DNA of 64,000 nucleotides, taken from assembly GCA_035419245.1 (NCBI GenBank), contig DAOLSP010000018.1, positions 130 through 64,129 on the forward strand. Direction: 5' to 3'. A program made the translations under genes and the position numbers. Of this stretch, positions 21,944 through 39,420 are shown in pieces. The notes beneath the pieces are model-generated. The model did no database searches. It saw only the letters and a program-made list of their open reading frames with translations, and was not told the origin of the DNA. Within the stretch, counting starts at the first letter, position 1; each line of letters opens with the position of its first letter. Origin of the DNA: a bacterium (GTDB lineage: Bacteria; Zhuqueibacterota; Zhuqueibacteria; Residuimicrobiales; Residuimicrobiaceae).

Positions 21944-21956
21944 TCTCGTGCAGATT

Positions 21957-22850: not shown

Positions 22851-22880
22851 CCACTACCTTTAATAAAGCAGTCAAGGGTA

Positions 22881-22920: not shown

Positions 22921-23062
22921 TGCAGTCCCATCTCATCAGCCGTCGGGAATTCGGCAGCCGGATGCAATGAACAGCCCCTGGTCTACATCGTACAATACCG
23001 GCTAACGCCCCGGCGTTTACTGCGCCGGAAGATGCTCCGGTTTTTCCAGCTTTGCTTCGGAC

Positions 23063-23245
23063 TTAAGATGCGGCGTAGGTGTCACATTGAACTGTGTTAT
23101 TTCTGTTTACACAGATCGCGCCGGCCGCCTGGTCCGGCATGTTCCTTGGATTGGGATTTTTACAGTAAATTTTTTGCAGCAGGTTTTCATCCGGGCGGGC
23201 GTGGTACAGGATGACCAGTTCGGGTTTCTGCCATTGTTTTTTCAT
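23063..23245 (-). CDS. Precursor peptide copy 2 (60 aa): MKKQWQKPELVILYHARPDENLLQKIYCKNPNPRNMPDQAAGAICVNRNNTVQCDTYAAS.
   Basis: RBS AAGGAGAAA. The ORF track lists 23063..23251 from an upstream ATG; the second ATG has the better spacing. Shared with precursor-1: leader QW(K/Q)KPEL, CKN at the start of the core, three Cys, xQC near the C-terminus. It lies immediately downstream of rSAM copy 2. Confidence 0.75.
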   Translation of the reverse strand: MKKQWQKPELVILYHARPDENLLQKIYCKNPNPRNMPDQAAGAICVNRNNTVQCDTYAAS

Positions 23246-23287
23246 GATCATTTTCTCCTTTATTTAGGGACTTTGGATTTTCCACTT

Positions 23288-24496
23288 TCAGACTTGTGCG
23301 GATGCAGGCTGTCTGGTAGTCAGCGATGGCCGCTGCAGGTCTTTTACCCGGTGTTGCCAGTCAGCAACCATCCAGGATTTTTCACCTTCGGCCAAAAGGC
23401 CGATGAGTCTGGCCTGGGCATGTGTTAGACGGCAAAAATGTTCCAGCCACCCATCCAGTTTCCGCTCTTCCATCCAGGAAACCGCCGGGCATTGCTCGCA
23501 TAGATCGACGAGAAAACAATGCGCGCAGCGTTCATGATACAGCTTATCCTGAGCCTCAAGCTGCCTCACCTTTGGGAAAAATTGGCGAAAAGCATCATGC
23601 AATGATCCCTTTCCCAGATCATATACAGTGTCAGGGTGGCGCAACAGCAAACACATCTGTAATTTTCCATAGGCATCCGCGCAGCCTTTGTTGATCCCGG
23701 CATTACATCGGAATAAAGCAGTGCCATGGACCTGGCAGAACCGGGAACAGAAAGCCTTGAGGCCATCGATCTGAGCTCTCTGATCTCTCGACTCCAGCTC
23801 CAGTTGAAGTGATGGAGCGATGCGGAAGGTTTTAATCTCTTCATTGCGTTGTACATCCCTTCCCCTGCATCTCAGATGAAGGGTGGTCACCTGTGGCTTG
23901 AGAATATTCAAGTCTTTACGACTCTCGGCCCAGGCCTCAAATGCGAGGAATGTACCTTTGCTCAACGGGAGCAGAACAGGATTGATCACAAAGGGTATCT
24001 TGTAGGTGGTCAGCAGATCAATCCCTTTAAGCACGGCTTTGTATGAATCCGGCGTGCGGGATATGGACTCGTAAGTTTTTTGATCTTTCCCGTACAGCGA
24101 AATTTGCAGAGGATGACCGGCCGGGAATCGGGAAAGAATCCGGGCCAGTTGTGGTGTAATTCTGGTTCCGTTGGTGAAAATTTCCACCCTCAGTCCGAGC
24201 TTTTTTGCATACACATAGATCTGCTCAAAATCTTCTCTGAGCAGAGGCTCCCCTCCGGTGAACCGGATGTTCTGGCATCCCAGGCAGAGAGCTTCCTCCA
24301 GAATCGTTTGAATTTTGTCGAAAGCCAGTTCCTGGTTGATGGATGGATCATCCGCTGGTCGATTGATATAGCAGTGAACACAGTCGTTGTTGCAGCGTTC
24401 CGTGAGTTCCATATCCAGCCGTGTGATGAGGCGGCCTTTGGTACCCGAGATGGATGGAGGGAGGGGCATTCTTCGTATGTAGGAGCTGCCTGTCAT
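23288..24496 (-). CDS. Radical SAM / SPASM-domain peptide-modifying enzyme (copy 2; closest paralog of 8098..9453).
   Basis: LTERCNNDCVHCYINRP (CxxxCxxC), RFTGGEPLLREDF, SPASM cysteines (FRCNAGINKGCADAYGKLQMC ... CAHCFLVDLCEQCPAVSW ... HFCRLTHAQARLIGLLAEGEKSW). Start codon ATGA-overlaps the upstream HprK-like stop. Confidence 0.9.
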   Translation of the reverse strand: MTGSSYIRRMPLPPSISGTKGRLITRLDMELTERCNNDCVHCYINRPADDPSINQELAFDKIQTILEEALCLGCQNIRFTGGEPLLREDFEQIYVYAKKLGLRVEIFTNGTRITPQLARILSRFPAGHPLQISLYGKDQKTYESISRTPDSYKAVLKGIDLLTTYKIPFVINPVLLPLSKGTFLAFEAWAESRKDLNILKPQVTTLHLRCRGRDVQRNEEIKTFRIAPSLQLELESRDQRAQIDGLKAFCSRFCQVHGTALFRCNAGINKGCADAYGKLQMCLLLRHPDTVYDLGKGSLHDAFRQFFPKVRQLEAQDKLYHERCAHCFLVDLCEQCPAVSWMEERKLDGWLEHFCRLTHAQARLIGLLAEGEKSWMVADWQHRVKDLQRPSLTTRQPASAQV

Positions 24497-25389
24497 ACCT
24501 TAAATTCCCTCAGGAGATCCACTACCGCCCCGCTTTTGTCAAATTCAAGGCTTCGGCATGGCACTTCTTTTATCAAGTCGTTGATAACTGCAAGGGTCTG
24601 ATGCCACCAATCGGAAGTGCCAAGTGGTCTGATGGCTTTGATCGTGCACGCACTCAACCTGCTGATCAACTGGGTTTTGTCATGAATCGGCAACAGGCGG
24701 TTTGTTGCGGCCTTGTCCAGCAAGAGAATGGCTTTTAAGGGAGCGGAATCAGGCGAAACGATGGATACTTCTCCATGATGCCAGGTGCCGTGAATACGGA
24801 AACCGGCCGAATCTTTTCGCACGATAATTCTGTCATCACAAAGGATTTTCGCCTGGCCGGCGAGCATCTTCACCATCGTGGATTTTCCGGCCGTGGAATG
24901 GCCTGGAAAGAGAAGACCTTCGCCTTCCAGATCGACGCCAGAAGCATGAAACATGCAGCCATGGCAGGTTGCCAGCACTCGAGTGATAAAAAGTTGATCC
25001 GTTTGAGAAAATGATAATACGGCAACATGGCCGTCTCTGAAGATATCATCCCGTTCATTAAAGATAACCAGATGAGTAAACGATGGATGTACGAATGCAA
25101 CCTGCTGCAAGGGGTTCGATTGATTGTCAAGCAGCGTGCAGAAGAAAATCCATTTATCAGGATGCCGGTAGATGGTCAGGTTCTCGCGCTCGAATACCTT
25201 CCGGCCCAAATCTTGTCCTTCAATAATCGGCAGGCCAAAGTGATGTTCAATCCGGACCATGACTTCTTTCGGCTCTGCAATTTCGAAAGAAGAGATATTC
25301 GGGCTGAATGTTTCATCTGAAAGCGGATAGTCTGAATCAACCTGAATTGTCATTCCAGCAGTACAATAATACCGGCTAGTTGATTTCAT
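24493..25389 (-). CDS. HPr-kinase-related P-loop protein (HprK-like kinase, copy 2).
   Basis: FPGHSTAGKSTMVKMLAGQAKILCDDRIIVRK aligns with copy 1. The ORF track starts at a TTG at 25560; similarity to copy 1 begins near the Met at 25389 (MKSTSRYYCTAGMTIQVDSD vs MVEHCRWYSIGDITLQVESD). Confidence 0.7.
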   Translation of the reverse strand: MKSTSRYYCTAGMTIQVDSDYPLSDETFSPNISSFEIAEPKEVMVRIEHHFGLPIIEGQDLGRKVFERENLTIYRHPDKWIFFCTLLDNQSNPLQQVAFVHPSFTHLVIFNERDDIFRDGHVAVLSFSQTDQLFITRVLATCHGCMFHASGVDLEGEGLLFPGHSTAGKSTMVKMLAGQAKILCDDRIIVRKDSAGFRIHGTWHHGEVSIVSPDSAPLKAILLLDKAATNRLLPIHDKTQLISRLSACTIKAIRPLGTSDWWHQTLAVINDLIKEVPCRSLEFDKSGAVVDLLREFKV

Positions 25390-26190
25390 ACATCCGCACC
25401 TTGTGCCAACTGATTTCTGTGGATTCCAGTTTCGCCCATTGTGGGAAAGCTTGCCTGGATCCGAGAATAGTAATCCGTAAGGTTCAGCCGAGTGACATCG
25501 ATCCTTGAATTGAATCAGTTCGCTGGCCTGCTGTTCCACAGCGTCTAAAGTGAATTCCAAGATCGTTGCACGAAAGTAGACAACTTGCTTAATAAAATGG
25601 AAAGGAATGAAAGTCTCTGCCCAGGGAACAGCTACCTGTGAACTCTTGGCGCTGGCACAGTTCTACCAGGAAAATGAGTTAACAAAAATAAAACCGTTTA
25701 TTAGCTCTGGGATTGGACGGCCAATTACTTCATTCCGTCCTTTCATGGATAATAGATACTTGGTTGCAGGACTTGGTGCGGGGTATTCTCCGGCGATGCA
25801 AGGCTTTATTATGTAGTATAAGGCATAAATTAACACCAAGCAAGTACTTTTTCTGAATCTTCAATTATTCTCTCGATAATGCATTGCCATTGTTTGTGCC
25901 AAGGATGATCTCTTGTATTCCTGTGCAGCAAGCAGACTTCGTCTCTGGTAAAGGGGTGATCCATCATCGTGCGGTGGGGACGCTCCAATTCTGCATAACG
26001 TATGGTGCCGTCTGGAAAATAAACGATTGCAAAACCATTGCGCTTTCGCCAGATCTAATCACCATACAGGCTTTTTGATCGTTCAATTTCCCAGATTCCT
26101 GTACCGGCTGCTATGGTCTGTACAGACTTGCGGGCTGATGATTCCTCGCTCCCGACTGCCTTCTTCGGCTTTCACTCCCGGTCCACCCGC

Positions 26191-29100
26191 CTATTTTGGT
26201 AATCGAATCACAAACTCGGTAAACTCGCCCTGCACGGATTCGAACCAGATCTGGCCATTATGCCCCTGCACGACAATGTCATGGCTGATTGACAAACCCA
26301 GCCCCGTGCCCAGCCCCGCCGGCTTGGTGGTGAAAAAAGGCGTGAATATCTTGTCGCGGACTTCTGGCGGTATGCCATTGCCATTGTCGCGGATGCGGAT
26401 TTCGACCGTACTGCCGAGATTCACGGTGCGCACCCGCAATGTAGGTGTAAATTCACCGCCCGCTGTCCGCTTCTTTTTATGTGCTTCATAGCAGCCATTG
26501 TGCAGAATGTTGAGAAAAACCCGGCTGATATCCTGCGGCACTATTTTCAGCTCACCGACAGTCGGATCCAACTCTGTCTCGAATTTGATATTAAAGGTGC
26601 TATCCTGTGCGCGCATGCCGTGATAGGCGAGGTTGATGTCCTCCTCCAGCATGGCATTGATAAGGGTAGGCTGGCGCTCGCCCGCCTTGCCGCGTGAATG
26701 CTGGAGCATGCTGCGCACGATGTTGTCCGCGCGCTTGCCATGTTCCTTGACCCTTTCGGCGTTTTGTTGCAGCGTCGCGAGCAGCTCGTCAATCTCGGCG
26801 TCCGTTTCCTGATTCGGGGACTTTTTGGCCTTGGTCAGCAGCTGGCGCAGTTCATCGACCATCTCCACAGCGAGCTCGGAGAAATTGTTGACAAAGTTGA
26901 GCGGATTTTTAATCTCATGCGCGATCCCGGCGGTCAGGGCTCCCAGGGCCGCCAGCTTGGATTGGGTCACCAGCTTTTCCTGTGTGGTCTTCAAGTCATC
27001 CAGAGTTGCAATGAGCCGGCGGTAGGATTCAGCGTTCTCCAGAGCAATGGCGCTGTAGGTGGCCAGGTTGCGCAGGATATTGAGATCATATTCGCTGTAG
27101 GCGTTTTTGCTGAAGCTCTGCGCGGTAATGACGCCGATCACTTTTTCCTTGTGCATCAGCGGCAGATAGAGAATCGATTCGGGCATCTTGCCGCCCATGG
27201 GGGACTTGAGGATTTGAATATATTTTTTATAATCCCGGTCACTGTCGTTGATGATAACGTCATGCTGGTTCTTGAAGCACCATACGGCCAGCCGGTTCTC
27301 GTCGGCCAGGTCATAATTAAACGGCGGCAGGGTCTCGCCGTTTTCGATGGTGGCGGGAAATTCGAGACTGTTTTTCTCTTCGTGGTAGAGGCCGATGCCG
27401 AAGATCGGGGCATCGATGAGTTTGTTGACATTCTCATAGACGGTCTGGATGATGGATGCAATGGAAAGGTTATCGATGATGTCCTGGCCGATGCTGCTGA
27501 GCTGTTCGACGTTCCTGATTTGCTCCTGGATTTTGGCCGTACGCTTCATGACGGTTTTCTCCAGGGATTTTCTGAGCCGGTGCAGCCGCCGGGTGCGCAG
27601 GAGCACAATACCGGTGATCGTGCCGCCGGCGAACAGCAGATATCCGATCCAGATCCACCAGCTCCGGTACCAGGGGGCTGAAATCGAAAAGGCGAAGGAG
27701 GTTTCGGTGCTCTCTTCTCCGTAAATATTTCTGGCCCTGACACGGAAAACATACGGACCGTGGGGGAGATTCGTATAATTGCGCTTGCTATCCTTGCTCC
27801 ATGCCGACCAGCGCGGGTCAAATCCCTCCAGCATGGTCTGATATTCATTCGCCATGGGCTTGATATAGGAGGTCGCGGTATACTCGAAAGTCATGGCGTT
27901 GAATTGGTAGGGGAGGGTATAGTGTTCTGAAGCATTCTGCAGCGGCCCGAAGCCGCCATTGTAGAGGATCGAGTCGTTGGCGATTTTTACGCGGCGGATG
28001 AGTGCCGGAAAGGGACGATGTGAGGTCGTGCCCCGGGCTGCGGTGAAACGGATCGCGCCGTGGGTCGTGCCAAACCACACTGTTGCGCCGCTTTCAGGAT
28101 AGATGGCGTAGAGGAGCTCATCGGCAAATCGTGATGTGCTGTTTTTTTCAAGCTGATAGCTGCCGTCAGCCTTTTTGCGATAAAACGCTGTCTCTTTGCC
28201 GGCATTCGCCCATATATTGCTGTCGGCGTCTTCGGTGATCACGCATTCACCCGGGTTGATGCCGAGTCCCACTGCCTTGAAAAAGGGATCCGGATAGAAT
28301 TTCTGTTCCTGTTCATCAAACTGGTAGATTCCTTTACCTGTACCGAAGACCAGACGGCCTGCCACCTGAAAAACCGAGGTAATGCCGATCGGCAGGCCCT
28401 GATCCGGGCCGAACCTTTCAATAACGGGATGGTCGATGCCGCTGCCGGCAAAGTGCAGGCGGATGAGCCCGGAATTATAGGTACTGAGCCAGAAGGTTCC
28501 GGGGACAGGTTCAACAATCTGGCGGATATATTCATGCACCACCTGAATAATGCTTTCCAGCCTCAAACGGCCCGGGGCATGGGCATCGTACTTCAGGGTG
28601 GCGAGGCCATTGATTGCACCGGCGATGATACGGCTGCTGTCGAGACGGGATTTATGCAGGCAGATGAACGCGGGAGTCGTGGCGCTATACGGCAAGGCGA
28701 GCGTCCCTTTTGTGCCCTGGATCAGGTAGATGCCGGTCACATTGCCGGCATAGAGGTGGCGGTCAACAGCCAGGGAATTGGATGCCCCCGAATTCCTCAT
28801 GCCCTCGACATATTTGAACTGCGAATCATGCCTGTCCAGATAATAAATCCCATCCGTGGCTGAGGCATAGAGGGTGCCCTGGTATCTGCGCAAATCGAAA
28901 GGCACGCCCCCGGAGGCAAAGGGAAAATGGGTCAGCCCGGATTCGTATTCGAGAATGCCGACGCCGCCGGCCATGCCCAGCCAGATGTTTTTCTGGCGAT
29001 CGACAAATACAGCCGCAACGGTATTGGACAGCAGCCCGGTTTCCCTGGTAAGGTGCAACTTGATCTTCCCCGTGCTGTCGATAATCAGGAATCCTGCGGA

Positions 29101-29943
29101 GAGAGTGCCCAGGGCAAGCGAGCCATTTGGCAGCACCCTGGCGTCGTAGAGCGTACCTTGCTGTAATAGTTCGTCCGCTTCCGTGTGCAGGGGTTGAAAG
29201 GAATGGCCGTCATAGAGATATAGTCCGCGGTTCAGGGTTCCCAGCCATGCCGTGCCGGGACGGCCAGGGAAGGGTAGCATGACATGGGAACGGTCGTTGA
29301 CGAACTGCTGGCTGCCGGGAATCAGAATCAGGGAATCGCCAACCAGCTTTTTCATGCCGTGTCCGCGCTGCAGGACGTACAGAGTCTGATCCAGATAGAA
29401 CGAATGGATAAAATAATTTTTGGGATTCTCTGGACGCCAGATTTTGACAAGCCGGCTGGTTTCATTGGTGCCAGCCGGGGCGACGTGCTCGAAGAGGAAC
29501 AGCCGCTCCCTCGCCTGGAAATAGATCCCTTCGGGCGCTGCATGAATGGACCAGATATAATTGAATCCCCGGTCTTCGGGTGGGATTTGCTCGAGCAGGG
29601 AAATATAGCGGGTGGCGCCGCTGGTGTCTGCATCGAGATAGCCGAGTTCGGTGGCGGAACCGACATAAATGCGGCCGCTGGAGTCTTTGGCAAATGAGCG
29701 TACGAAGGAACCGTTGGGGATTTTGATCATGCGCCAGGTTGAGCCGTCAAACTCCTGGATGCCGTAGCCATTACCGACATAGATGATGCCGCGATTGTCC
29801 TGGGCGAAGGCATAATTCTGGGTATGGCCTCCGGTTTGGACGGCGGAGTAGAGGCTCATAAAGGGCGTGCCGGTTTCGGCAGGCAGGGCCGGTGTGCAGA
29901 GGAGGGCCAGAAGAAAGACCAGGATTTTCCGGACATTGTCCAT
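26191..29943 (-). CDS. Sensor histidine kinase with periplasmic two-component-regulator propeller/Y_Y_Y domains, a TM helix, a GAF-like region, and HisKA plus HATPase domains. No receiver domain is fused.
   Basis: Signal peptide MDNVRKILVFLLALLCTPALPA, ~700 aa of beta-propeller-like repeats, TM WWIWIGYLLFAGGTITGIVLL, H-box AHEIKNPLNFV, G-boxes GLGTGLGLSISHDIV. Confidence 0.8.
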   Translation of the reverse strand: MDNVRKILVFLLALLCTPALPAETGTPFMSLYSAVQTGGHTQNYAFAQDNRGIIYVGNGYGIQEFDGSTWRMIKIPNGSFVRSFAKDSSGRIYVGSATELGYLDADTSGATRYISLLEQIPPEDRGFNYIWSIHAAPEGIYFQARERLFLFEHVAPAGTNETSRLVKIWRPENPKNYFIHSFYLDQTLYVLQRGHGMKKLVGDSLILIPGSQQFVNDRSHVMLPFPGRPGTAWLGTLNRGLYLYDGHSFQPLHTEADELLQQGTLYDARVLPNGSLALGTLSAGFLIIDSTGKIKLHLTRETGLLSNTVAAVFVDRQKNIWLGMAGGVGILEYESGLTHFPFASGGVPFDLRRYQGTLYASATDGIYYLDRHDSQFKYVEGMRNSGASNSLAVDRHLYAGNVTGIYLIQGTKGTLALPYSATTPAFICLHKSRLDSSRIIAGAINGLATLKYDAHAPGRLRLESIIQVVHEYIRQIVEPVPGTFWLSTYNSGLIRLHFAGSGIDHPVIERFGPDQGLPIGITSVFQVAGRLVFGTGKGIYQFDEQEQKFYPDPFFKAVGLGINPGECVITEDADSNIWANAGKETAFYRKKADGSYQLEKNSTSRFADELLYAIYPESGATVWFGTTHGAIRFTAARGTTSHRPFPALIRRVKIANDSILYNGGFGPLQNASEHYTLPYQFNAMTFEYTATSYIKPMANEYQTMLEGFDPRWSAWSKDSKRNYTNLPHGPYVFRVRARNIYGEESTETSFAFSISAPWYRSWWIWIGYLLFAGGTITGIVLLRTRRLHRLRKSLEKTVMKRTAKIQEQIRNVEQLSSIGQDIIDNLSIASIIQTVYENVNKLIDAPIFGIGLYHEEKNSLEFPATIENGETLPPFNYDLADENRLAVWCFKNQHDVIINDSDRDYKKYIQILKSPMGGKMPESILYLPLMHKEKVIGVITAQSFSKNAYSEYDLNILRNLATYSAIALENAESYRRLIATLDDLKTTQEKLVTQSKLAALGALTAGIAHEIKNPLNFVNNFSELAVEMVDELRQLLTKAKKSPNQETDAEIDELLATLQQNAERVKEHGKRADNIVRSMLQHSRGKAGERQPTLINAMLEEDINLAYHGMRAQDSTFNIKFETELDPTVGELKIVPQDISRVFLNILHNGCYEAHKKKRTAGGEFTPTLRVRTVNLGSTVEIRIRDNGNGIPPEVRDKIFTPFFTTKPAGLGTGLGLSISHDIVVQGHNGQIWFESVQGEFTEFVIRLPK

Positions 29944-31017: not shown

Positions 31018-32706
31018 TTACCTGATCAGGGTAAATTTTTTGGTTTCCACGTTGCTGCCATCGACCTGTAATCGATAGAAATAAACGCCGCTCGGGAAGA
31101 GTGTCCCATCCCATTTTCTGGTATGGGATCCAGCGGGCAGCACCTCCGAACAGAGAATGGCCACCTCTTCGCCGGCACTGTTGAAAATGCACAGCGAAAC
31201 CCGGGCCTGTGCCGGGATAGTAAAGTGTATCGAGGTTGTGGGATTGAATGGATTAGGGTAATTCTGGTCCAGCGTAAAGGTCTGCGGCTCGATTGGATGG
31301 CTGTTGTGCAGGCCGGTAATTGCCTGATTGCCAAAATAAAATGGTGAAACGAGGAAAAATTCGAGCAGCAGCTGGCTTTGATCCGCGTTGAGCATTTGAA
31401 ACCTGGTCTCATCGACAAGAATGCTCAGATTGGAAATCTCATAAAATCCGTCTCCACTCCCGCTGCCATCGGCATAGAGAGGCGAACCATGGGCCGCATA
31501 ATTGGGAGTGAGTCCTCCTTGACTGAACGGGCGGGCGAATATGCGCACGCCTCCCGGCTGATTGGCAAGATAGTTGAATTTTATCGCTACTTTTTGCCCG
31601 GATGTTAGGTAAGCCGGTGGTGCGGGTTCAAATTGTACTTCGGAAATTTTGTGCGGGAAATAGGGATAGTAAGCAGGAATAAAAAGTTCGAGCAGGAGTT
31701 GGCTCTGATCGCTGTTAAACATCTGGAAACGGATTTTATCGACAATGGCATTACCGGAAGTGATTGTAAAATATCCTGTTCCACTGCCGCTTCCCGCCGG
31801 GTATAGTGGAGAACCATGAGCGGCATAGTGGGGGGGCAGGCCGCTTCCGGAAAATGGACGTGCGAAAATCCGCACGCCGCCCGGCTCGGGCGTGCTGTAA
31901 TCGAAGGTGAGGTTGACGTGCTCGTTGAACAGCATGCAATGGGGAGCGGCAGGCGAAACGACGATATTTTTGATAGCATGGGCGGCATAGTGGAATTCGA
32001 CCGGGATAAAATACTCGATCAGGAGTTGGCTCTGGTCGTTGTTATACATTTGCAGGCGGAGATGATCGACAAGGGCATTTCCGGAGTTGATGGTAAAATA
32101 TCCGGAGCCAGTGCCGCTTCCGACGGGATAGAGTGGCGAGCCGTGCGCGCCATATCCAGGGGTTGTTGCACCATTGGTCATCGGGCGCGCGAATATACGT
32201 ACCCCCCCGGGTTGACTGGTGGTATAATCAAAGGTGATGTTGACGTCCTGCCCGAATAATAATGACGAGGGCGTATCGGGAGTAATGTGGACATTTTCGA
32301 TGGCATGGGCGGAAAAGTGGTATTCCACCGGAATAAAGAATTCAAGCAGTACCTTGCTTTGATCCGCGTTCTTGAGTTGAAATCGCAACTGATCGACGGT
32401 GATATCCCCCGTCATGATCGTAAAAAAGGCAGTTCCCGTTCCCTTGCCAGCTGGATAAGACTGGGATGCGTGCGCGGCGTAATGGGGTGTAAGCGCCCCT
32501 CCCGAGAAGGGCCGTACAAAAATCAGAGTGCCAGCCGCCTCGCTCACTGAAAAGTCGAAGGTCAGCGTAACTTTCTGGTTGAAAAGGAGGCAAGCCGGTG
32601 AAGAAGGGGTCATGCGGATGTTGGAAATATAATCGCAGACTCCATGGCTAGCAAACGCCAGCGACAGCATGGCGATCCATGCTAGAATCCGCTTTTGCGC
32701 ATTCAT
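31018..32706 (-). CDS. Secreted protein with four ~110-aa tandem repeats and a T9SS C-terminal sorting domain.
   Basis: Signal peptide MNAQKRILAWIAMLSLAFA with RBS AGGAGG. Repeat unit ...IFARPFS.G.LTP.YAAHGSPLYP.GSG.G.GYFTI.SGN..VD.LRFQM.N.DQSQLL.E.FIP. C-terminus NYPNPFNPTTSIHF...VYFYRL (T9SS CTD). Confidence 0.75.
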   Translation of the reverse strand: MNAQKRILAWIAMLSLAFASHGVCDYISNIRMTPSSPACLLFNQKVTLTFDFSVSEAAGTLIFVRPFSGGALTPHYAAHASQSYPAGKGTGTAFFTIMTGDITVDQLRFQLKNADQSKVLLEFFIPVEYHFSAHAIENVHITPDTPSSLLFGQDVNITFDYTTSQPGGVRIFARPMTNGATTPGYGAHGSPLYPVGSGTGSGYFTINSGNALVDHLRLQMYNNDQSQLLIEYFIPVEFHYAAHAIKNIVVSPAAPHCMLFNEHVNLTFDYSTPEPGGVRIFARPFSGSGLPPHYAAHGSPLYPAGSGSGTGYFTITSGNAIVDKIRFQMFNSDQSQLLLELFIPAYYPYFPHKISEVQFEPAPPAYLTSGQKVAIKFNYLANQPGGVRIFARPFSQGGLTPNYAAHGSPLYADGSGSGDGFYEISNLSILVDETRFQMLNADQSQLLLEFFLVSPFYFGNQAITGLHNSHPIEPQTFTLDQNYPNPFNPTTSIHFTIPAQARVSLCIFNSAGEEVAILCSEVLPAGSHTRKWDGTLFPSGVYFYRLQVDGSNVETKKFTLIR

Positions 32707-33005
32707 GGTGTGGTCCTCCTTGTTTGAGGGTCTGGCTGTTTGTCCCGGATCTTTTCCCGGAGCACCAAAAGATTTGTACTTGTAAAGCTGGAACTGATTT
32801 TTAGCTGGTTCGGGCTGGGCTGACCGGCATATCCAGGTGAATGATGCGTTTAGTATTCCATTCTGCACAGCTGCGATTTTGGATCAATTCGGCAGAGGGG
32901 GAAGTCTGGATTGCTATGCGTTCGTGTACAGGGGAGGACAGGAGGGCGGCTGGTTTTGGAGTGGAGGATGCCCCTGATGCAGTATAAGCAACGCAATGTA
33001 AAAAG

Positions 33006-33563
33006 TCAACGGATAAATTGCATTTCTCGCACTGCCTCGGACGGCTTGATCCTCGCCAGCAGGGCTTCCAGCTTGATCTCGCCGCGGATTTTATCTCTCA
33101 ACACTCCCTCATGATCAAAGATGAAGAAGGAAGGCGCGATCGCTGCGCCGAAATGGCGTGAGAACTGCTTTTCGTCCAGGCGGGCCCAGATGAAATTCTC
33201 CATGCGGGAGAGCGCGGGCCAGCGCAGATTGTCAATTCCCGGAATGAAATCCCGGTCGGTCGTGGCCAGATAGATGCCGGTGCCGGCGAACTCACCGATG
33301 TGCTTTTCGAAAAGATCCAACTCATAGAGGCAATGGGGGCAGTGCCTGGTGAAGAGCATGATCAGCGTGGTTTTGCCTGGGAAAGGTTTCAGGCTATCGG
33401 GTCCGGCCGGGGAAGCGAAGGCGAGGGCGGGCATAGGCGTTCCCAGCGGCAGTGTCGGCGGCTTGAGGGCGTTGTAGAAGAGCCAGAAAAAAAATGCAGA
33501 AATCGCCAGAGTAATGACCAGCGCCGCATTGCGTCTGGATTTATTTAGGGCTTTTTCCGGCAA
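33006..33563 (-). CDS. Membrane-anchored thioredoxin-fold thiol-disulfide oxidoreductase (TlpA/ResA-like).
   Basis: N-terminal TM VITLAISAFFFWLF. CxxC active site in MLFTRHCPHCLYELDLF. Confidence 0.65.
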   Translation of the reverse strand: MPEKALNKSRRNAALVITLAISAFFFWLFYNALKPPTLPLGTPMPALAFASPAGPDSLKPFPGKTTLIMLFTRHCPHCLYELDLFEKHIGEFAGTGIYLATTDRDFIPGIDNLRWPALSRMENFIWARLDEKQFSRHFGAAIAPSFFIFDHEGVLRDKIRGEIKLEALLARIKPSEAVREMQFIR

Positions 33564-33600: not shown

Positions 33601-33648
33601 GTCTCGTTCCCGCTGTTCGTCTCGTTCCCGCTGTTCGTCTCGTTCCCA
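33601..33648. repeat. 18-bp tandem repeat GTCTCGTTCCCGCTGTTC, 2.7 copies.
   Basis: Read directly: gtctcgttcccgctgttc gtctcgttcccgctgttc gtctcgttccca. Confidence 0.8.
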
Positions 33649-33826
33649 CCCGTAATTTTGAATCAGATAGAATCCAGGGAATTCGTTTCAAGACACTCCT
33701 CCCATGGTGGCATAATAGGAAGGATCGATTTCATCTTGGCATAGTTTCTCGCACTGGAGTAAGGTCACTCCTCCGGTTTGTAAACAAAGCCGGCCTTGAT
33801 GGGATGGTAATGGATAACATCCAGTT

Positions 33827-34228
33827 TTACAGAAATACGGCTTCGTGGGTAATCTCCTCCAACCGGCTGTCCGCTTGCCAGATCTGGTGCGACTTGTCCC
33901 GTAGGCGCGCTTTGTTGCCTTCTGCGAACCGTTCCAGAATAGCCATCTTGTTATGCCAGTAGTAATAGCGGAGGTAGCAGGAGGCTGTGGAGGACTTGAA
34001 CTGATGGATGAGTTTGGAAAGATTTTCGTGCCGGGCAATAAGGTGAAGATGACCCTTCATGATGACATACCCATGGGGGCACAGCCCATGCTCGATTTGG
34101 CACGCAGCAAGCACATCGATGGTGATTTTGACAATAACCGGATTGGTGAATATGGGAATCCAGCCTACCACGGTGCAGGTCAGAAAGTAGGGAATTGCGG
34201 TGGAGAGTGTTTTTCGGGTGCGGGGCAT
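33827..34228 (-). CDS. IS200/IS605-like or RAYT-like HuH (Y1) transposase-family protein. Possibly truncated or inactive, as no clear catalytic Tyr context is seen.
   Basis: HuH motif HGYVIMKGHLHLIARHEN matches Y1 transposase ..Y.IMPNHVHLL... N-terminal MPRTRKTL. The expected RGY(Y/F) catalytic region reads IWQADSRLEEI. No IS boundaries identified. Confidence 0.55.
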   Translation of the reverse strand: MPRTRKTLSTAIPYFLTCTVVGWIPIFTNPVIVKITIDVLAACQIEHGLCPHGYVIMKGHLHLIARHENLSKLIHQFKSSTASCYLRYYYWHNKMAILERFAEGNKARLRDKSHQIWQADSRLEEITHEAVFL

Positions 34229-34615
34229 AGATACCATTCTGATTTGCTTTACATTAAGTAGCAACTTGAATCTTAAAACGATTATGGTTGATAAATGAGA
34301 TGCCTGCTATGAAGTGAATTCTTTCTTTACAAAGTCACCGAGCAATATAAAGAAAGCTACCATCGCCACAAAAGAAAGAAATAATGGGATTGTACCTTTC
34401 TCCAGGCAGTGGATGAATACCTTTACAGAAAGACCCATAAGGAAAATCAGGGAAAGCAGCTTTCCCAGTTTTGAGCGGTCGCTATTCATAACGTGTCGTT
34501 ACCTCGCTTTGTACATCTCCAATGAAAAGGGACGATATAACGGCATTATGCACTCTTGATTTTCAGAGCAATGGACAGTTTGATACGATCCAAAGAAGCG
34601 AACATGCCCTCACTA

Positions 34616-34780
34616 TGAATTAGCCCTTCTTTTTAGCAGGGTCATGATTATCGAAGCGAGAAAAAGCATAACAAGTACCCCTGAGATAAAATCGCGTTGA
34701 AATTTATCGCCCATTAGGAACTGCAGGGCAAAGATTAACAAAGCCATGATTCCTAATGTTATGCGCTGCCACTTGTTCAT
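34616..34780 (-). CDS. Small 2-TM membrane protein (55 aa), candidate bacteriocin immunity protein.
   Basis: MNKWQRITLGIMALLIFALQFLMGDKFQRDFISGVLVMLFLASIIMTLLKRRANS. RBS GGAGG. It lies directly downstream of the two GG-leader peptides. Confidence 0.45.
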
Positions 34781-34848
34781 ATATGCCTCCATAAATGTAG
34801 TAATAATATTGCCTGCCTGCCGGATTTCGCAAGCAGGCATTTGTGTTA

Positions 34849-35058
34849 TCAGCTGAATTCGAGATAAATGCCTCTTCCCAGGCAAAATAGGCCGCCCGTC
34901 ACAAGCAACCCCCAGCCAACGCCGGTCGCTGAGATAACTCCGATAAGAGCAGCCGCATCTGCGATGGCAACGCCAGTGCAAAGGCCATTGACAAATGAGC
35001 GCAGATCGCCAGCGGAAATTTGCATCATCTCCTCGTCTGTTAATAAAATGGGCTGCAT
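34849..35058 (-). CDS. Double-glycine-type leader peptide B (69 aa), class-II-bacteriocin-like: leader MQPILLTDEEMMQISAG, Gly/Ala-rich hydrophobic core with 2 Cys.
   Basis: Leader fits the L..EEL..I.GG pattern (LTDEEMMQISAG). Core DLRSFVNGLCTGVAIADAAALIGVISATGVGWGLLVTGGLFCLGRGIYLEFS carries GxxxG motifs. RBS AAGGAG overlaps the peptide A stop (TAAGGAGAAAAAACAATG). Confidence 0.65.
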   Translation of the reverse strand: MQPILLTDEEMMQISAGDLRSFVNGLCTGVAIADAAALIGVISATGVGWGLLVTGGLFCLGRGIYLEFS

Positions 35059-35070
35059 TGTTTTTTCTCC

Positions 35071-35271
35071 TTAGAGGTAGATATTCCTCATTATTCCAAA
35101 CGCACATGAATGAACACCGACGGAAACCAGAAATCCGGCCAGTAAACCGCCAGAAACCAGTGCACCAAAGATGATTCCGGCTGCACAGGCAGCCCCTGCG
35201 ATGTAGTCAATCTGGTCATCCGTCAAGCCACCGGCGATTTTTTCCATATCTTCAATTGAAAGCGTGTTCAT
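35071..35271 (-). CDS. Double-glycine leader peptide A (66 aa): leader MNTLSIEDMEKIAGG, core LTDDQIDYIAGAACAAGIIFGALVSGGLLAGFLVSVGVHSCAFGIMRNIYL.
   Basis: Canonical GG leader (LS.E....I.GG). RBS GGAGGT. It lies immediately downstream of the C39-ABC exporter and membrane protein on the same strand. Confidence 0.75.
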   Translation of the reverse strand: MNTLSIEDMEKIAGGLTDDQIDYIAGAACAAGIIFGALVSGGLLAGFLVSVGVHSCAFGIMRNIYL

Positions 35272-35417
35272 ATTACCTCCGTGATAGTTCTACTCACTCT
35301 GACAACCTCCCCTCCAGAGTTCCGGACCTCTGGAGTCATTTATAGGCTGGCACCATGCCAGCTTGCTTCGTTGTTCTATGCCTATCCATTTCGGGGCGGC
35401 GCGAGAAAAATGGGGCG

Positions 35418-36077
35418 CTACATCCGCTCCAGATAGGCAGTCACGCCCCATTGAAACAGAATCACCACGGTCCACATCAGCAGGACGACCAAGGCAGCGT
35501 CCAGCCGCTTCAACCGGTTGGTCCTCATCAATCCAATGAGCAAAAGCGCAAGAAATCCGAGCTCAAACAAATTCAAATGGCTGAAGAAGCCCTGCGTTGC
35601 AGCCGAAGCGGTGGCAAGATCCAGCAGCGAACCCAGCGACAGCGGGATCCAGTTCAGATCCGCCCGGGTTACCTGCGCTGCCGGGATCCCGGCGAGGAAA
35701 AGCAGCCGGATCCCCTCAAGCAGAATCAGCGGCAGCGAAGCCACCGCGACGATTCGGAATAGCCGCCGGAAGGGGATGTCGATGAAGCGCAGCACCAGCG
35801 GCAGCTGCAGCAGAAAGCCGACAAAGAGGATCCGGATGCCGATGACCAGCGGAATGGCCACGTAGCCCCACAGGTTCATCCGCTCGAGCAGATCGAACAG
35901 GGCATCGATGCGCTGCACCTCGAGTTGCTCTTTGAGCAAGGCATGATAGACCTCGCGCGTCAGGATCTGCTCCTGGTACACCCAGGTCAGTAGCGCCTCG
36001 CAGGCGATGAGCAGCAGGAAAAGGTGCCAGCCCTTGATCGCCTCCAGCCGCGGCCGGTGCAGGAGGCAGCCGTTCAT
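35418..36077 (-). CDS. Polytopic membrane protein (possibly a Yip1-like accessory or immunity protein) in the bacteriocin-like operon.
   Basis: About five predicted TM helices. The Met at 36077 forms an ATGA overlap with the stop of the C39-ABC transporter gene. The ORF track starts it at 36122. Confidence 0.5.
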   Translation of the reverse strand: MNGCLLHRPRLEAIKGWHLFLLLIACEALLTWVYQEQILTREVYHALLKEQLEVQRIDALFDLLERMNLWGYVAIPLVIGIRILFVGFLLQLPLVLRFIDIPFRRLFRIVAVASLPLILLEGIRLLFLAGIPAAQVTRADLNWIPLSLGSLLDLATASAATQGFFSHLNLFELGFLALLLIGLMRTNRLKRLDAALVVLLMWTVVILFQWGVTAYLERM

Positions 36078-38503
36078 GACCAGCCTTCCGCTGCTGCAGC
36101 AAGCATCCTGTTCTTCCTCCACAGCAGTTCCCGGAAAAGGCCGCCCCGCTCCAGCAGCTCTCCTGGCGCGCCCTCTTCCGCGATCTGGCCCTCGCGCATG
36201 AGGTAGACGTACCCCGTCCGCCGCAGCGACTCCAGGTTATGGGTGATCAGCAGGACCGCCTGATGCCGCGCCCACTCCGCAATGATGCCCGCCAGAGCGT
36301 TCTCCAGATCGGCGTCGATAGCGCTGAATCCCTCATCGATCACCAGCAGGCGCGGCTTTCCATAGAGCGCCCGCGTGAGGGCGAGTAGCTGGGCCTCTCC
36401 TCCTGAAAGCTTGCGCCCCTCTTCGCCGAGCAGCGTCAGGAGGCCGTGCGCGAAGCGGCCGGGCAGGAACGATAAGCCCAGTTCCGCCAGCCGCGTGCTG
36501 ATCTCCTGTAGGCTGGCAGCTGGCCGTCCCAACAGGAGATTCTCCGCCAGGGTGGCATTGAAGATCTTGATCTGCTGCGGCACGACGCCGATGCGGCGGC
36601 GCAGCTCTGTGAGCCCGATGCGGGTGATCGGGGTCTCCTCCCACCGGATCGTCCCGGCGAGCGGCGTGTATTTGCGCTGCAGCAGCTGGACCAGAGTGCT
36701 TTTGCCGGCGCCGCTCGGACCCCAGAGTCCGGTGATGCGGCCGGCCGGGATGGTCAGCGAGAGGCCGCGCAGCAGTTCGGGCGATTTGGGCCAGGCGAAG
36801 GCGAGCGCCTCCACCCGAACCACGGGGAAAGGAGCGGCTGACGGACCGGGCGCAGCAGTGCATTCTGCGGCGGGCGGGATGCCAGCAGAATCCGTGGATG
36901 CAAGCCTGCGGCCGGTGGCAGGCCCATCCAGCGGCTGCACTCGATCCACTCCGCCAGCCGGGTCCTTTCCCGACAGAACGGATTCTTGGTTTGGGTTAAT
37001 GGACGGCGGCCGAACAACAGCCGGGTCGCCGCCGGCCGCCTCCGCCGTCTCGGATTCCCTCTCGATCAGCAGCAGATCCAGTAAACGCTGGGCAGCGGCC
37101 TCCGCGCTCTGGAACTCGACGAAAGCGGCCACGAGGCTGGTGATCGCGGGCAGGATATAGCCGAGCAGGGAGTAGGCGGCCATGAACTGGCCGAGGCGCA
37201 GTTCCTCCGACATCACCTGCCAGGCGCCGAGGGCTAGCAGGCTCACCGACATGGCGGCCGCCAGCAGGCCCACCGCCAGGGTCAATCCCGCCTGCTGCAA
37301 TCCGAGGCGCTCGATCTGTTCCTGAAAGGCCGTGAAAACCCCCTGATTGAGGCGGGTGAAGGCGGGCGCGGCGTTGTAGCTCATGATTTCCGGCATGCCC
37401 TGAATGGAGTCGATGTAGGTGGACTCCACCGCCGCATGGCTTTTCATCACTTCGCGCTGCTGTTGCTTGAGGCGGCGGGCCTGGCGCCAGAGCACGCCGA
37501 TATAGAGGGGCAGCATCGCCAGGGTGAGGAGCCCGAGCCGGCGCGAAAAATAAAAGATGAACAGCAGGGCGCCGAGGGCGAGCAGGAGGTCAAGCAGGGC
37601 GCTCTGCAGCAGCATCAGACAGGTGCGGTGGATGCGCAGGCTGTCCCCGATGCGGGTGGTGATATCACCGGTTTTACGGCTATCAAAAAAGGCCTTGGGC
37701 AGATGAAAAAGGTGGGCGAAAAAGTCGTTGGTCACCGCCAGGCTGAGGCGCTTGTTGGCGGCGACGAGGAGGCGGTCGCGGAGGTAACCGACGGCGGCGC
37801 GCAGGGCCAGCACACCGAGCAGGGCGGTGCCGAGGAGGAGGAGCTTGTCCATCTGCCGGGCTGGAAGGAGACGGTCGATGAGGGTTTGCACAAAAAGGGC
37901 GGTCAGCAGGCCCGCAGCGGTATACAGCAGTCCGGTGAAGAGGATCTGTTGAAGCCAGGCTGCTTGACGACGGAGGTAGCCGCCGATCCAGCGCAGCCAG
38001 CCGGGGGCGGGCTCGCGCAGAAGGCCCTTGACGGGCGCAAGTTTGGCGGAATGCAGCAGCCCGCCGCGGTGGAATCCGTTGCCGGCGGGCTCGAGGAGGA
38101 GGACGGCATGCTGCAGCCAGAGCTTCTCAAAGGCGGCGCGGCTGAGCGTATAACGGCCCTTACCGGGGTCGCCGATCAGGAGGCGCCTGGGCGATATTTT
38201 GTAAAGGACCAGGAAGTGATTCAATCCATCGGGGAGTACGACATGGGCGATGCAAGGGAGCTGCTCGCGGGCGAGTTCTTCCACTGTGCCGCGTGCGCCG
38301 CGGGCAAGAAAGCCCATCCTCTGTGCGGCCCGAGCCAGGTCGAGCATGGTGGTACCCTGAAGGTCGGTGCGGCAGAGCTGGCGGGCGCGGACCAGGGTCG
38401 TGTCGCCCCCGTACCAGCGCAACACCGAGAGTAAGGCAGCCGGGCCGCAGTCGAGCTGGTCATACTGTCGGACCAGGGGATATCGGAAACGGAGGTGGAT
38501 CAT
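36074..38503 (-). CDS. Peptidase-C39-domain ABC transporter (bacteriocin/GG-leader peptide processing and export; LagD/ComA-type).
   Basis: N-terminal C39 motif QYDQLDCGPAALLSVLRWYG plus a His-containing region, a six-TM ABC exporter domain, then an NBD with GPSGAGKSTL, LSGGEAQLLALTRAL and LLVIDEGFSAID. A Pro/Ala-rich low-complexity linker (~aa 480-560) precedes the NBD. Confidence 0.85.
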   Translation of the reverse strand: MIHLRFRYPLVRQYDQLDCGPAALLSVLRWYGGDTTLVRARQLCRTDLQGTTMLDLARAAQRMGFLARGARGTVEELAREQLPCIAHVVLPDGLNHFLVLYKISPRRLLIGDPGKGRYTLSRAAFEKLWLQHAVLLLEPAGNGFHRGGLLHSAKLAPVKGLLREPAPGWLRWIGGYLRRQAAWLQQILFTGLLYTAAGLLTALFVQTLIDRLLPARQMDKLLLLGTALLGVLALRAAVGYLRDRLLVAANKRLSLAVTNDFFAHLFHLPKAFFDSRKTGDITTRIGDSLRIHRTCLMLLQSALLDLLLALGALLFIFYFSRRLGLLTLAMLPLYIGVLWRQARRLKQQQREVMKSHAAVESTYIDSIQGMPEIMSYNAAPAFTRLNQGVFTAFQEQIERLGLQQAGLTLAVGLLAAAMSVSLLALGAWQVMSEELRLGQFMAAYSLLGYILPAITSLVAAFVEFQSAEAAAQRLLDLLLIERESETAEAAGGDPAVVRPPSINPNQESVLSGKDPAGGVDRVQPLDGPATGRRLASTDSAGIPPAAECTAAPGPSAAPFPVVRVEALAFAWPKSPELLRGLSLTIPAGRITGLWGPSGAGKSTLVQLLQRKYTPLAGTIRWEETPITRIGLTELRRRIGVVPQQIKIFNATLAENLLLGRPAASLQEISTRLAELGLSFLPGRFAHGLLTLLGEEGRKLSGGEAQLLALTRALYGKPRLLVIDEGFSAIDADLENALAGIIAEWARHQAVLLITHNLESLRRTGYVYLMREGQIAEEGAPGELLERGGLFRELLWRKNRMLAAAAEGWS

Positions 38504-38577
38504 GCCTTCCCCATCGATCGTAGAGAAGCGCTGCAGCCGGCACTCATCCGCAGCCGTGGTGGCGGACTGGCGCGGGG

Positions 38578-38898
38578 TCAGGCGGCGTGCATCACTTTTC
38601 TGAAATCCTTCGGCGCCATCCCCTTGTCGCGGCGGAATGCGGCGCGGAAGGAGCGGTCGGAGCCGTAGCCGGCGTGGCGGCTGACATTCTGGATCTTTTC
38701 GCCCTCAAGCAGCAGGCGGGTGGCCAGCGCCAGCCGCATCTCCTGGATGAGCTTTTGCGGCGAGGTTTGAAAGTGCTGATGGACGGCCTTGCGCAAATAC
38801 GACCGGGAGACGTTTAATATCAGAGCGAGGCGCTTGACACAAAACTGCGGATTACCGAGATTTTCAAGGATCACTCCCTCCACAACACGCCGTGTCAT
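38578..38898 (-). CDS. AraC-family helix-turn-helix DNA-binding protein (HTH domain only, 106 aa).
   Basis: ILENLGNPQFCVKRLALILNVSRSYLRKAVHQHFQTSPQKLIQEMRLALATRLLLEGEKIQNVSRHAGYGSDRSFRAAFRRDKGMAP, the AraC-type HTH signature. Confidence 0.65.
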   Translation of the reverse strand: MTRRVVEGVILENLGNPQFCVKRLALILNVSRSYLRKAVHQHFQTSPQKLIQEMRLALATRLLLEGEKIQNVSRHAGYGSDRSFRAAFRRDKGMAPKDFRKVMHAA

Positions 38899-39420
38899 AT
38901 CACCCTCCTTGCTGATGGTGAACGGCCCGTGTGAAGCACGCGAAGGCCATCGAGGTCGTTATCGCGCCCATGCGCTGCAGGCGCTCGATCAGGGCTGCTG
39001 CGGCATGCTGCCGCAAAATATATTGGCGCAGGAATTTCCAGTGAGAGTCGGTTTGGATTCCGATCCATCCAGGTGTGCAGGTACGCTATGGAGATGAGAC
39101 GTCAGCCCTATGGGTCTGGAGGCTGGCGAGGCGGGGATTAGTGCCGGCGCCGTCCCCCTCCGCGCCGGCTGTTTAATGCGATGTACCCCCGGTGCTCATT
39201 GAATGATAATAAAAAAAGTATATCAGGTCAAGAAAAATCGGCGGTGTAGCGATTTTTTCCGATATTTTCGCCAATACGAAGAGAATCCTGACGCATTGGT
39301 GCGGAACGGTGACGAAAAGGATGCGCCAGTCCTGGCGGTGTAGCCATGGGGGCGCTCCGTCACTCCCTCTCGCTCCCGCCTGTTCTCAGCCTGCGCCAAC
39401 CGTCCAGGGCGGGAGCGGGC

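Follow-up and report, generated by a model that had tools for sequence, protein, structure and literature searches.

The operon and its products

The subject of this analysis is a peptide locus in a window of 64,000 nucleotides from a bacterium of the Zhuqueibacterota (contig DAOLSP010000018.1, assembly GCA_035419245.1). On the minus strand, from 38898 to 33006, this locus encodes, in order, an AraC-type helix-turn-helix (HTH) regulator, a C39-peptidase ABC exporter (PCAT), a membrane protein of 219 amino acids (aa), two small peptides (A and B), a 55-aa and a 60-aa protein, the remnant of a RAYT gene and a thioredoxin-fold protein. The locus is a genuine and well-conserved operon for peptide production. 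An earlier note, made from the sequence alone, had described an operon of double-glycine (GG) leader peptides with a PCAT, and this description is borne out by the leaders and by Pfam domains. Every gene that it listed is present at the coordinates given, on the minus strand; its list had overlooked the 60-aa membrane gene (34489-34307) and the decay of the RAYT gene had gone unseen.

The two peptides are encoded side by side. The precursor of A has 66 aa (35071-35271, minus strand) and consists of a 15-aa GG leader, MNTLSIEDMEKIAGG, and a 51-aa core; that of B has 69 aa (34849-35058, minus strand), with a 17-aa leader, MQPILLTDEEMMQISAG, and a 52-aa core. The genes lie 12 nt apart, and the AAGGAG ribosome-binding site (RBS) of B overlaps the TAA stop codon of A. 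Both leaders follow the canonical double-glycine pattern, with Ile-4, Met-7, Asp-8 and Leu-12 in A and Ile-4, Met-7, Glu-8 and Leu-12 in B, the latter ending in Ala-Gly, not Gly-Gly. When a regular expression for such leaders was run over the six frames of the 64-kb window, it matched the A and B genes only. Each core contains two Cys, at positions 14 and 41 around a central SGG turn in A and at positions 10 and 42 in B. Gly and Ala together make up 31% of the cores, and there are 10 [GAS]xxx[GAS] motifs in A and 9 in B; these GxxxG-like motifs discriminate weakly, since they are expected by composition in Gly/Ala-rich peptides. The grand average of hydropathy (GRAVY) is 1.22 for core A and 1.15 for core B, and the net charges are -2 and -1, respectively. 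In the AlphaFold2 (AF2) model of peptide A (pLDDT 67), a leader helix is followed by a helix at 18-38, a turn at 39-41 and a second helix at 42-65.

A and B are real genes and not chance open reading frames (ORFs), because they are under purifying selection at a substantial synonymous divergence. Between orthologues from three species, pS ranges from 0.2 to 0.5, with pN/pS values of 0.2-0.3 for core A and 0-0.075 for core B. The pair has been found in five lineages (the window and the related loci L018, L017, L041 and L053), in the same order, with 66 and 69 aa and free of indels; the two Cys never vary, all five keep the AG site of B, and the identity of core B in the other four lineages is 100%, 94%, 69% and 62%. 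The adjacent two-Cys, GxxxG-rich peptides of the earlier note are thus a pair that is maintained between lineages. A word-indexed search of 5.8e9 proteins with peptide A returned only 3 clusters, all of them orthologues, and so connected it with no known bacteriocin. Anaerobic-digester-type metagenome contigs and unclassified metagenome-assembled genomes (MAGs; for instance, GCA_035373785.1) are the only places where the exporter and peptide A recur as exact copies.

Neither peptide matches a bacteriocin family at E<=0.1 in Pfam-A or NCBIfam; the nearest family match is to the leader of lichenicidin A2 (E 0.072, NCBIfam). This weak match, the three radical-SAM genes present in the window and the fact that GG leaders and PCATs are common in clusters for ribosomally synthesised and post-translationally modified peptides (RiPPs; PMC10352776) are what can be said for A and B as RiPP precursors, of a lanthipeptide-, sactipeptide- or ranthipeptide-like kind, with their enzymes encoded elsewhere, for example by those radical-SAM genes. 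Such precursors are nevertheless very unlikely here. No modification enzyme is found in the operon or in about 30 related loci, where only the thioredoxin-like protein, accompanied in some by a MauE-like protein, is conserved; the closest of the radical-SAM genes lies over 9 kb from the operon and shows no synteny in relatives; and a two-Cys pattern that is symmetric around a turn fits a simple disulfide.

The PCAT (809 aa; 36074-38503, minus strand) contains the Pfam domains Peptidase_C39 (2e-28), ABC_membrane (3e-34) and ABC_tran (1e-27). It is built of a C39 domain, a six-helix transmembrane domain (TMD), a Pro/Ala/Gly-rich linker with about 60 extra aa and a nucleotide-binding domain. Its match to TIGR01193 (8e-97) falls below the cut-off because the linker splits it. 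The best solved relative is PCAT1 of Clostridium thermocellum (4ry2, 9e-91), which has the same domain order and catalytic residues, and differs in its partners and in being without the extra linker. The oxyanion Gln and the catalytic Cys, His and Asp of PCAT1 align with RQYD, DCGPA, NHF and GDPGKG of the window exporter; judging from this alignment, the C39 peptidase should be active. The linker is a low-complexity segment at about aa 489-574, between the TMD and the ATPase domain, and is some 60 aa longer than in PCAT1. Relatives of the exporter range from 711 to 829 aa, so that linker length is specific to the clade.

Directly downstream lies the gene of the 219-aa protein (35418-36077, minus strand), whose ATG overlaps the TGA of the exporter gene as ATGA (36077-36074) and which is therefore translationally coupled to it. 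The AF2 model, made with an alignment of 13 homologues, has five transmembrane (TM) helices (pLDDT 78.5, pTM 0.72), and the protein is accordingly referred to as 5-TM. No Pfam family was found for it in a Pfam scan, and no similar solved structure was found for its fold. Its family is nonetheless large as well as unannotated: a profile search of 1.84 billion representatives gave 682 clusters (at 50% identity) at E<=1e-3 and 266 at E<=1e-10, and its members spread over bacteria from digesters, sludge, sediment and the sea. Among 37 diverse members, 12 have sub-threshold matches to Yip1 (best 5.8e-5) and 16 to YknW (best 3.6e-9), and hhalign aligned the family profile with a PF04893 protein over 188 columns at 94.5% probability. 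The window protein itself matches YknW at 0.009-0.012 (15 bits, for a cut-off of 110), with no Yip1 match reported, and it does not reach the curated cut-offs of PF04893 and NF052650. A broad search with the 5-TM profile found mostly known members, with two PF04893 proteins among the matches listed. At the level of profiles, therefore, the family appears to be distantly related to Yip1/YknW. A tblastn search of plasmids with two family members gave no match. A DsbB-like redox role was considered for the 5-TM protein and rejected, as many members lack Cys and a single Cys is semi-conserved in the window clade. Its proposed role as an accessory subunit of the exporter is held with moderate confidence.

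The last gene of the locus encodes a membrane-anchored thioredoxin-fold protein of 185 aa (33006-33563, minus strand) with a CPHC motif and a cis-Pro. Its Pfam matches, to Redoxin (1.4e-5) and AhpC-TSA (5e-5), are sub-threshold. The thioredoxin-like proteins of the window and of seven other loci align with an N-terminal anchor, an invariant CxxC and the cis-Pro. CPHC is the active-site motif of the oxidase DsbA, and for this reason an oxidising role is favoured. With fairly high confidence, the protein is regarded as a putative periplasmic oxidase that forms the disulfide of the peptides.

Conserved neighbourhood and exchange of the cargo

The genomic neighbourhood was followed in 31 non-redundant loci that encode a member of the 5-TM family and that were scored with local hidden Markov models (HMMs). 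Upstream sequence is available for 25 of these loci, and in 24 of them the gene immediately before the 5-TM gene encodes a PCAT; only L033 departs from this order, with its PCAT two genes downstream. A thioredoxin homologue is encoded at most 6.5 kb downstream of the 5-TM gene, and often adjacent to it, in 13 of the 18 loci with enough sequence. Moreover, the two proteins occur as a natural fusion: in P0146, known from two independent metagenome contigs (L031 146-1276 and L032 204-1334), a thioredoxin domain (AhpC-TSA/Thioredoxin_2, with CGQC) follows directly after TM5. Because of this position the domain is predicted to be periplasmic, in agreement with a positive-inside topology. The thioredoxin-fold gene is thus a conserved partner in the module and not a chance neighbour, and the suggestion of the earlier note that it has a part in the system is supported.

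In 12 distant loci, the 5-TM and thioredoxin genes flank a gene for a MauE-like, NCGC-containing membrane protein, which is a candidate re-oxidant of the thioredoxin-like protein. Loci of this kind, from marine or sediment sources, include L022 (8752-9153), L049, L051, L052, L054, L057, L060, L063-L065 and L067. Local HMM scoring of the related loci detected no MauE-like protein in the window or its clade.

The cargo carried downstream of the module was compared in about 20 related loci. It comprises one or two small genes, the products of which begin with a GG leader (consensus M-x-x-[LM]-[ST]-x-E-[EQ]-M-x-x-I-x-G-G) and continue with a hydrophobic, Gly/Ala-rich core; most cores have two Cys, one towards each end. 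In the window pair and five other peptides, judged by eye, the midpoint between the two Cys falls on a helix-breaking motif (SGG, SATG, PLG, GGP, TGP, PDP or G). This arrangement suggests that the symmetric two-Cys cores are predicted disulfide-stapled helical hairpins.

Two further small genes accompany the peptides in the window. The first encodes a 55-aa, two-helix membrane protein with basic termini (34613-34780, minus strand), a candidate for immunity or an accessory role. It is kept with A and B in L017, L018 and L041, in the first of these even without the exporter, and its pN/pS is 0.12-0.21. Homologues also stand beside other cargo peptides in L026, L028 and L040. The earlier proposal of immunity for the 55-aa protein agrees with its travelling together with A and B; the presence of a near-identical protein beside different cargo weakens the case for an immunity that is specific to the cargo. 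The second gene encodes another two-helix membrane protein, of 60 aa (34307-34489, minus strand), and is a second candidate immunity or accessory gene; its orthologues are found in L018 (10781-10963) and L040 (10753-10920), and it is absent from L017. Immunity through either protein is held with low to moderate confidence.

What occupies the cargo slot varies between close relatives. L028, from the species with the closest 5-TM protein (82% identity), has a different cargo in the same slot: besides a 55-aa-like gene, it encodes an ABC-2 transporter and a GG peptide of 87 aa that contains four Cys. Similarly, the 5-TM proteins of L040 (7794-11496) and L041 (780-2106) are identical over their last 120 residues, yet the cargo of L041 is the A and B pair and that of L040 is a single 68-aa GG peptide with an ABC-2 transporter. 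Both loci keep a nearly identical 59-aa homologue of the window 55-aa protein. In L017, there is an orphan cassette in which the promoter block, A, B and the 55-aa gene are kept and the AraC, PCAT and 5-TM genes are absent. This cassette (L017 9400-10700), which matches window positions 39330-39200 and 35430-34613, belongs to a more distant species, and its genomic surroundings are unrelated. Bacteriocin and immunity regions, for example the pneumococcal blp locus, typically show such mosaics and cassettes without an exporter. The cargo mosaics and the orphan cassette therefore point to a region of this type, suggestively and without amounting to proof.

The composition of the locus, a check proposed in the earlier note, divides it in the same place. 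Third-position GC content (GC3) is 0.75-0.81 in the AraC, PCAT and 5-TM genes and 0.78-0.83 in the flanking mutL and miaA, and it falls to 0.48-0.54 in A, B and the two small TM genes. The low GC3 of the cargo could speak for a Firmicutes-style class IIb bacteriocin locus acquired horizontally, in which the 219-aa protein would be of the Abi/CPBP or LcnD type and the thioredoxin gene would be unrelated. The genetic layout is also in its favour, as adjacent GG-leader genes, GxxxG motifs and a small TM gene in one operon are genetic hallmarks of that class (PMC2850506). Several observations make this origin improbable, however. The exporter genes have a host-like GC3 and are syntenic beside mutL-miaA in several species; the 219-aa protein resembles Yip1/YknW; the thioredoxin gene is a partner that is conserved and sometimes fused; and there is no match to a class II bacteriocin, immunity, CPBP or HlyD/LcnD family. 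The peptides, in turn, are anionic and 51-52 aa long, and their recovered orthologues were found, together with the Yip1-like exporter clade, in digester-type metagenomes and MAGs. Of the class IIb likeness first noted for this DNA, then, the genetic layout stands, and the likeness of the peptides is not supported, given their anionic character, their length and the lack of any Pfam or NCBIfam bacteriocin match.

Regulatory elements and genomic setting

The first gene of the operon encodes an AraC-type HTH regulator of 106 aa (38578-38898, minus strand; Pfam HTH_18, 1.2e-19). It is a single-domain protein, of the size of MarA and SoxS and without a sensor domain, and its NCBIfam matches to RamA (1e-6) and SoxS (8e-5) are both sub-threshold. 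An AraC homologue also precedes the PCAT in relatives of the window clade. Upstream of the gene, a promoter scan marked a promoter/operator block (39200-39330, minus strand) that is kept across species. It contains a predicted sigma-70-like promoter, TTGACC-17-TATCAT, at 39231-39203, preceded by an 8-bp inverted repeat, AAAAATCG / CGATTTTT, at 39257-39250 and 39240-39233. The block is kept in L018, and in L017 it sits directly upstream of peptide A. The operon is probably transcribed from this conserved promoter.

Other elements lie within the operon. In the 5′ region of peptide A, just before the RBS (35312-35362, minus strand), there is a palindrome, GCTGGCA-N3-TGCCAGC (35346-35362), that the window and L018 share without a difference and that L017 has in imperfect form, and a hairpin with an 8-bp stem (35312-35335) that is identical in all three, even though the flanking genes of L017 differ. 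These structures may act as an internal promoter or operator, or else stabilise or process the mRNA. An Rfam scan of the window gave no match, so that no known riboswitch or leader RNA explains the 5′ hairpins. Between peptide B and the 55-aa gene, a further hairpin with an 11-bp stem (34810-34839, minus strand) is a candidate partial terminator that would set the ratio of peptide to downstream transcripts.

The type of regulator bears on the possibility that A and B are quorum-sensing pheromones of the ComC/BlpC kind, processed by the PCAT. GG leaders with a PCAT are common to pheromone systems, and a hybrid sensor kinase is encoded about 3 kb past the thioredoxin gene (29943-26191). Pheromones like ComC and BlpC are short and soluble, in contrast to the extremely hydrophobic, two-helix cores of 51-52 aa found here. 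In addition, the regulator is an AraC-type HTH protein and not a response regulator, the conserved disulfide machinery points to a structured product, and the kinase is kept beside the locus in contigs of the same species only and not in the loci of other species. A pheromone function is thus extremely improbable. The earlier note had named a ComC-like system with an adjacent histidine kinase as the finding that would speak against a toxin; that alternative is not favoured, because no histidine kinase is conserved with the locus. The kinase itself (26191-29943, same strand) has 1250 aa, with Reg_prop/Y_Y_Y, GAF, HisKA and HATPase domains.

Downstream of the 60-aa gene lies the decayed RAYT gene (33666-34306, minus strand), in which the HUH motif GHLHLI can still be recognised, with the C-terminus shifted out of frame. 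Measured against the intact protein of L018, the N-terminal fragment spans 34306-33830 and a C-terminal remnant, in another frame, 33764-33666; the match to NCBIfam REP_Tyr_transpos (3.5e-11) reaches 43 bits for a cut-off of 80. An 18-nt repeat of 2.6 copies (33601-33647) is the remnant of REP-like arrays. Intact RAYT genes (177-193 aa) are present in L018, L026 and L028, at differing insertion points in the cargo region, either ahead of the thioredoxin gene or in the interval that separates the 5-TM gene from the peptides. In L018 and L028 they are flanked by arrays of a REP-like unit of about 40 nt (L018 9317-9567, 11814-12035 and 13643-13756; L028 3870-4560). The RAYT gene had been taken as a hint of mobility. 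As a decayed remnant, it is weak evidence for current mobility, and the swapping of cargo is the better evidence of exchange.

Three window proteins contain Por_Secre_tail, the Pfam C-terminal sorting domain of the type IX secretion system (T9SS), and a fourth has a C-terminal FlgD_ig domain only; the host is accordingly a T9SS-bearing diderm of the FCB group. One T9SS-sorted protein, of 616 aa (31018-32868), is encoded directly downstream of the thioredoxin gene and is composed of four internal repeats of about 110 aa (…FDY…GGVRIFARP…YAAHGSPLYP…); on other contigs of the same species, gene calls give a 562-aa product. The radical-SAM genes of the window are at 8098-9453, 11989-13113 and 23288-24496. 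There is also an island of low GC3 (0.50-0.55) at 21100-25560 that encodes a radical-SAM protein, a methyltransferase, a UPF0489 protein and an unannotated 355-aa ORF. Neither this island nor the radical-SAM genes have an evident tie to the peptide locus. Finally, Pfam scans of window ORFs of at least 180 aa, and of the annotated flanks of related loci, detected no membrane fusion protein (MFP; HlyD) or outer-membrane efflux protein (OEP/TolC) domain.

Proposed function and known systems

The bacteroidetocin cluster of Bacteroides has four genes, for an uncharacterised five-TM protein, a C39-ABC transporter, a thiol oxidoreductase and a peptide that contains Cys and has a GG leader of 15 aa; toxin activity requires all four, and together they are sufficient in E. 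coli (PMC6671954). The TM protein and the oxidoreductase, the latter presumed to form the disulfides of the peptide, are required and give no immunity, and producers are self-sensitive (PMC6671954). The target of bacteroidetocin Bd-A is BamA (PMC8546649). Because the same four parts are found in the window, its locus would, by analogy, most likely work in the manner of the bacteroidetocin system. It is reasonably probable that the locus is a bacteroidetocin-type, class II microcin-like system for bacteriocin production, with an exchangeable cargo slot.

In such a system, the small MarA/SoxS-like activator would drive the operon, possibly with positive feedback. The C39 domain would then cut A after Gly15 and B after Gly17 (with Ala at -2), and the ABC moiety would carry the 51- and 52-aa cores across the inner membrane. 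Confidence in cleavage and export by the PCAT is high. As an accessory of the exporter, the 5-TM protein may take or hold the cores at the periplasmic face and recruit the oxidoreductase. The CPHC protein would close one disulfide per peptide (Cys14-Cys41 in A and Cys10-Cys42 in B), by which each core would be stapled as a helical hairpin around its central Gly-rich turn. Finally, A and B, which are always paired and rich in GxxxG, would act jointly on a membrane target in competing bacteria, and the 55-aa protein, perhaps together with the 60-aa one, would protect the producer. The antibacterial action and the synergy of A and B are putative and are held with moderate confidence.

A number of observations weigh against a bacteriocin of this type. 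There is no outer-membrane route among the scanned ORFs of the window and no MauE-like re-oxidant in the window clade, and a pseudogene and two small genes intervene between the peptides and the thioredoxin gene. No characterised bacteriocin or immunity family is matched by sequence in Pfam-A, in NCBIfam or in the search with peptide A, and core B is almost invariant between species, unlike many fast-evolving toxins. The cores are anionic, have the hydrophobicity of integral membrane hairpins and could stay in the membrane of the producer, and the predicted hairpin of peptide A comes from a model of low confidence. Specific immunity through the 55-aa protein is weakened, because it is near-identical across the different cargo of L040 and L041. 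Furthermore, the likeness of the 5-TM and thioredoxin proteins of the window to those of bacteroidetocin clusters is one of layout and description, and bacteroidetocin producers are without an immunity gene.

Some of these same observations would also be accommodated if A and B were not toxic at all. They would then be stapled hairpins kept in the envelope of the producer, with a structural, stress-related or transport-modulating role, and the PCAT, the Yip1-like protein and the thioredoxin would form a machine for insertion and oxidation. A GRAVY of 1.15-1.22 with a net negative charge, very strong purifying selection without indels over five lineages, the lack of an outer-membrane export component among the scanned ORFs and a 55-aa protein that is not specific to its cargo are all consistent with such a role. 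Nevertheless, the same gene set yields a diffusible toxin in Bacteroides, and cargo swapping, orphan cassettes, ABC-2 transporters and a deviant composition are typical of bacteriocin and immunity regions. Nor are the anionic charge and hydrophobicity peculiar to envelope proteins, as the class II microcins of Gram-negative bacteria, among them MccV, MccH47 and MccE492, are likewise anionic, hydrophobic and Gly-rich. A resident envelope function is thus considered unlikely, if still worth weighing, and the bacteroidetocin-type system is the reading preferred.

A wider proposal is put forward only tentatively, with somewhat more doubt than belief. A PCAT, a Yip1-like 5-TM protein and a CxxC thioredoxin, joined in some loci by MauE, may constitute a widespread and so far undefined "export-and-oxidise" module of diderms that makes stapled hairpin peptides without an MFP/TolC conduit. 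The Yip1-like proteins would be a new class of PCAT accessories that hand cargo to an oxidase. Within this module, the bacteroidetocin genes would form a single branch, and the pair of A and B would be the first two-peptide hairpin member, with small-TM immunity genes of its own and a swapped cargo slot. If this were true, the bacteroidetocin gene set would be part of a large family instead of a curiosity of the Bacteroidales. Its five-TM protein would gain an assignment to a Yip1/YknW-like fold family, a fusion with the oxidoreductase and a testable role as a PCAT accessory. A rule for recognising cargo would also follow, namely a GG leader with two Cys symmetric around a turn; since none of these peptides matches a Pfam or NCBIfam family, they are missed by current bacteriocin miners. 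In addition, cargo swapping and the orphan cassette suggest that bacteriocin/immunity dynamics similar to those of blp operate in uncultured bacteria of anaerobic digesters. Current understanding is not overturned by any of this, and the main value lies in the Yip1-like PCAT partner, its fusion with the oxidoreductase and the two-Cys hairpin rule.

Several known systems share parts of this arrangement. In Bacillus, the Yip1-type protein YknW assists an ABC pump that deals with the hydrophobic, single-disulfide toxin SDP (PMC4887032). YknWXYZ and the window locus thus have in common a 5-TM, Yip1-type protein tied to an ABC transporter for a hydrophobic disulfide peptide, the disulfide being a predicted one in the window. 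They differ in that YknW works with a MacB-type pump and an MFP in resistance, whereas the window protein has a PCAT as its partner and a role in production.

Class II microcins, such as MccV with CvaAB-TolC (PMC12219008), are also small, Gly-rich, hydrophobic peptides with GG leaders cleaved by a PCAT in a diderm; they are often anionic and have a disulfide and a small TM immunity protein, for which the window has a candidate. Their export employs an MFP (CvaA), TolC and the general DsbAB system (PMC12219008), whereas the window has a dedicated oxidoreductase and a Yip1-like protein, and no MFP or outer-membrane factor was found among its ORFs of at least 180 aa. The earlier note had considered a locus of this kind to be less expected in such a lineage. 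That view is outdated: class II bacteriocins with GG leaders are on record from 34 of 56 phyla, and thousands of them belong to Bacteroidota (PMC12648112; PMC12219008), so that their presence in this lineage is not surprising.

With the class IIb bacteriocins lactococcin G, plantaricin EF/JK and lactacin F (PMC2850506), the locus shares adjacent GG-leader genes and a small TM gene in one operon, abundant GxxxG motifs, predicted helical cores and a dedicated PCAT; its leaders, of 15 and 17 aa, lie within the 15-30 residues of the double-glycine leaders of that class. There is no match at the family level, however, and the window peptides are anionic, longer hairpins with a putative intramolecular disulfide, the accessory proteins are Yip1-like and thioredoxin-like and not of the LcnD type, and the producer is a diderm.

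The bacteroidetocins, proposed as class IIf (Coyne et al. 2019, PMC6671954; Matano et al. 2021, PMC8546649), have the same four-component layout, with a C39-ABC transporter, a thiol oxidoreductase and a GG leader of 15-16 aa (in the window, 15 aa ending in GG for A and 17 aa ending in AG for B). Like the window locus, their cluster has no MFP or TolC gene, and their hosts, too, are T9SS-bearing diderms of the FCB group. In contrast to the single bacteroidetocin peptide of about 42 aa with four Cys, the window has two paired peptides, with hydrophobic, anionic cores of 51-52 aa and two Cys; it also has small TM, immunity-like genes, an AraC regulator, another gene order and a RAYT remnant. Membership in this group is thus only partly established: the PCAT, the oxidoreductase, the length of the leader and the predicted architecture of the 5-TM protein agree with it, and the features of the peptides do not. 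The bacteroidetocin cluster is the closest known layout, and a better comparator for this locus than the class IIb systems of Firmicutes.

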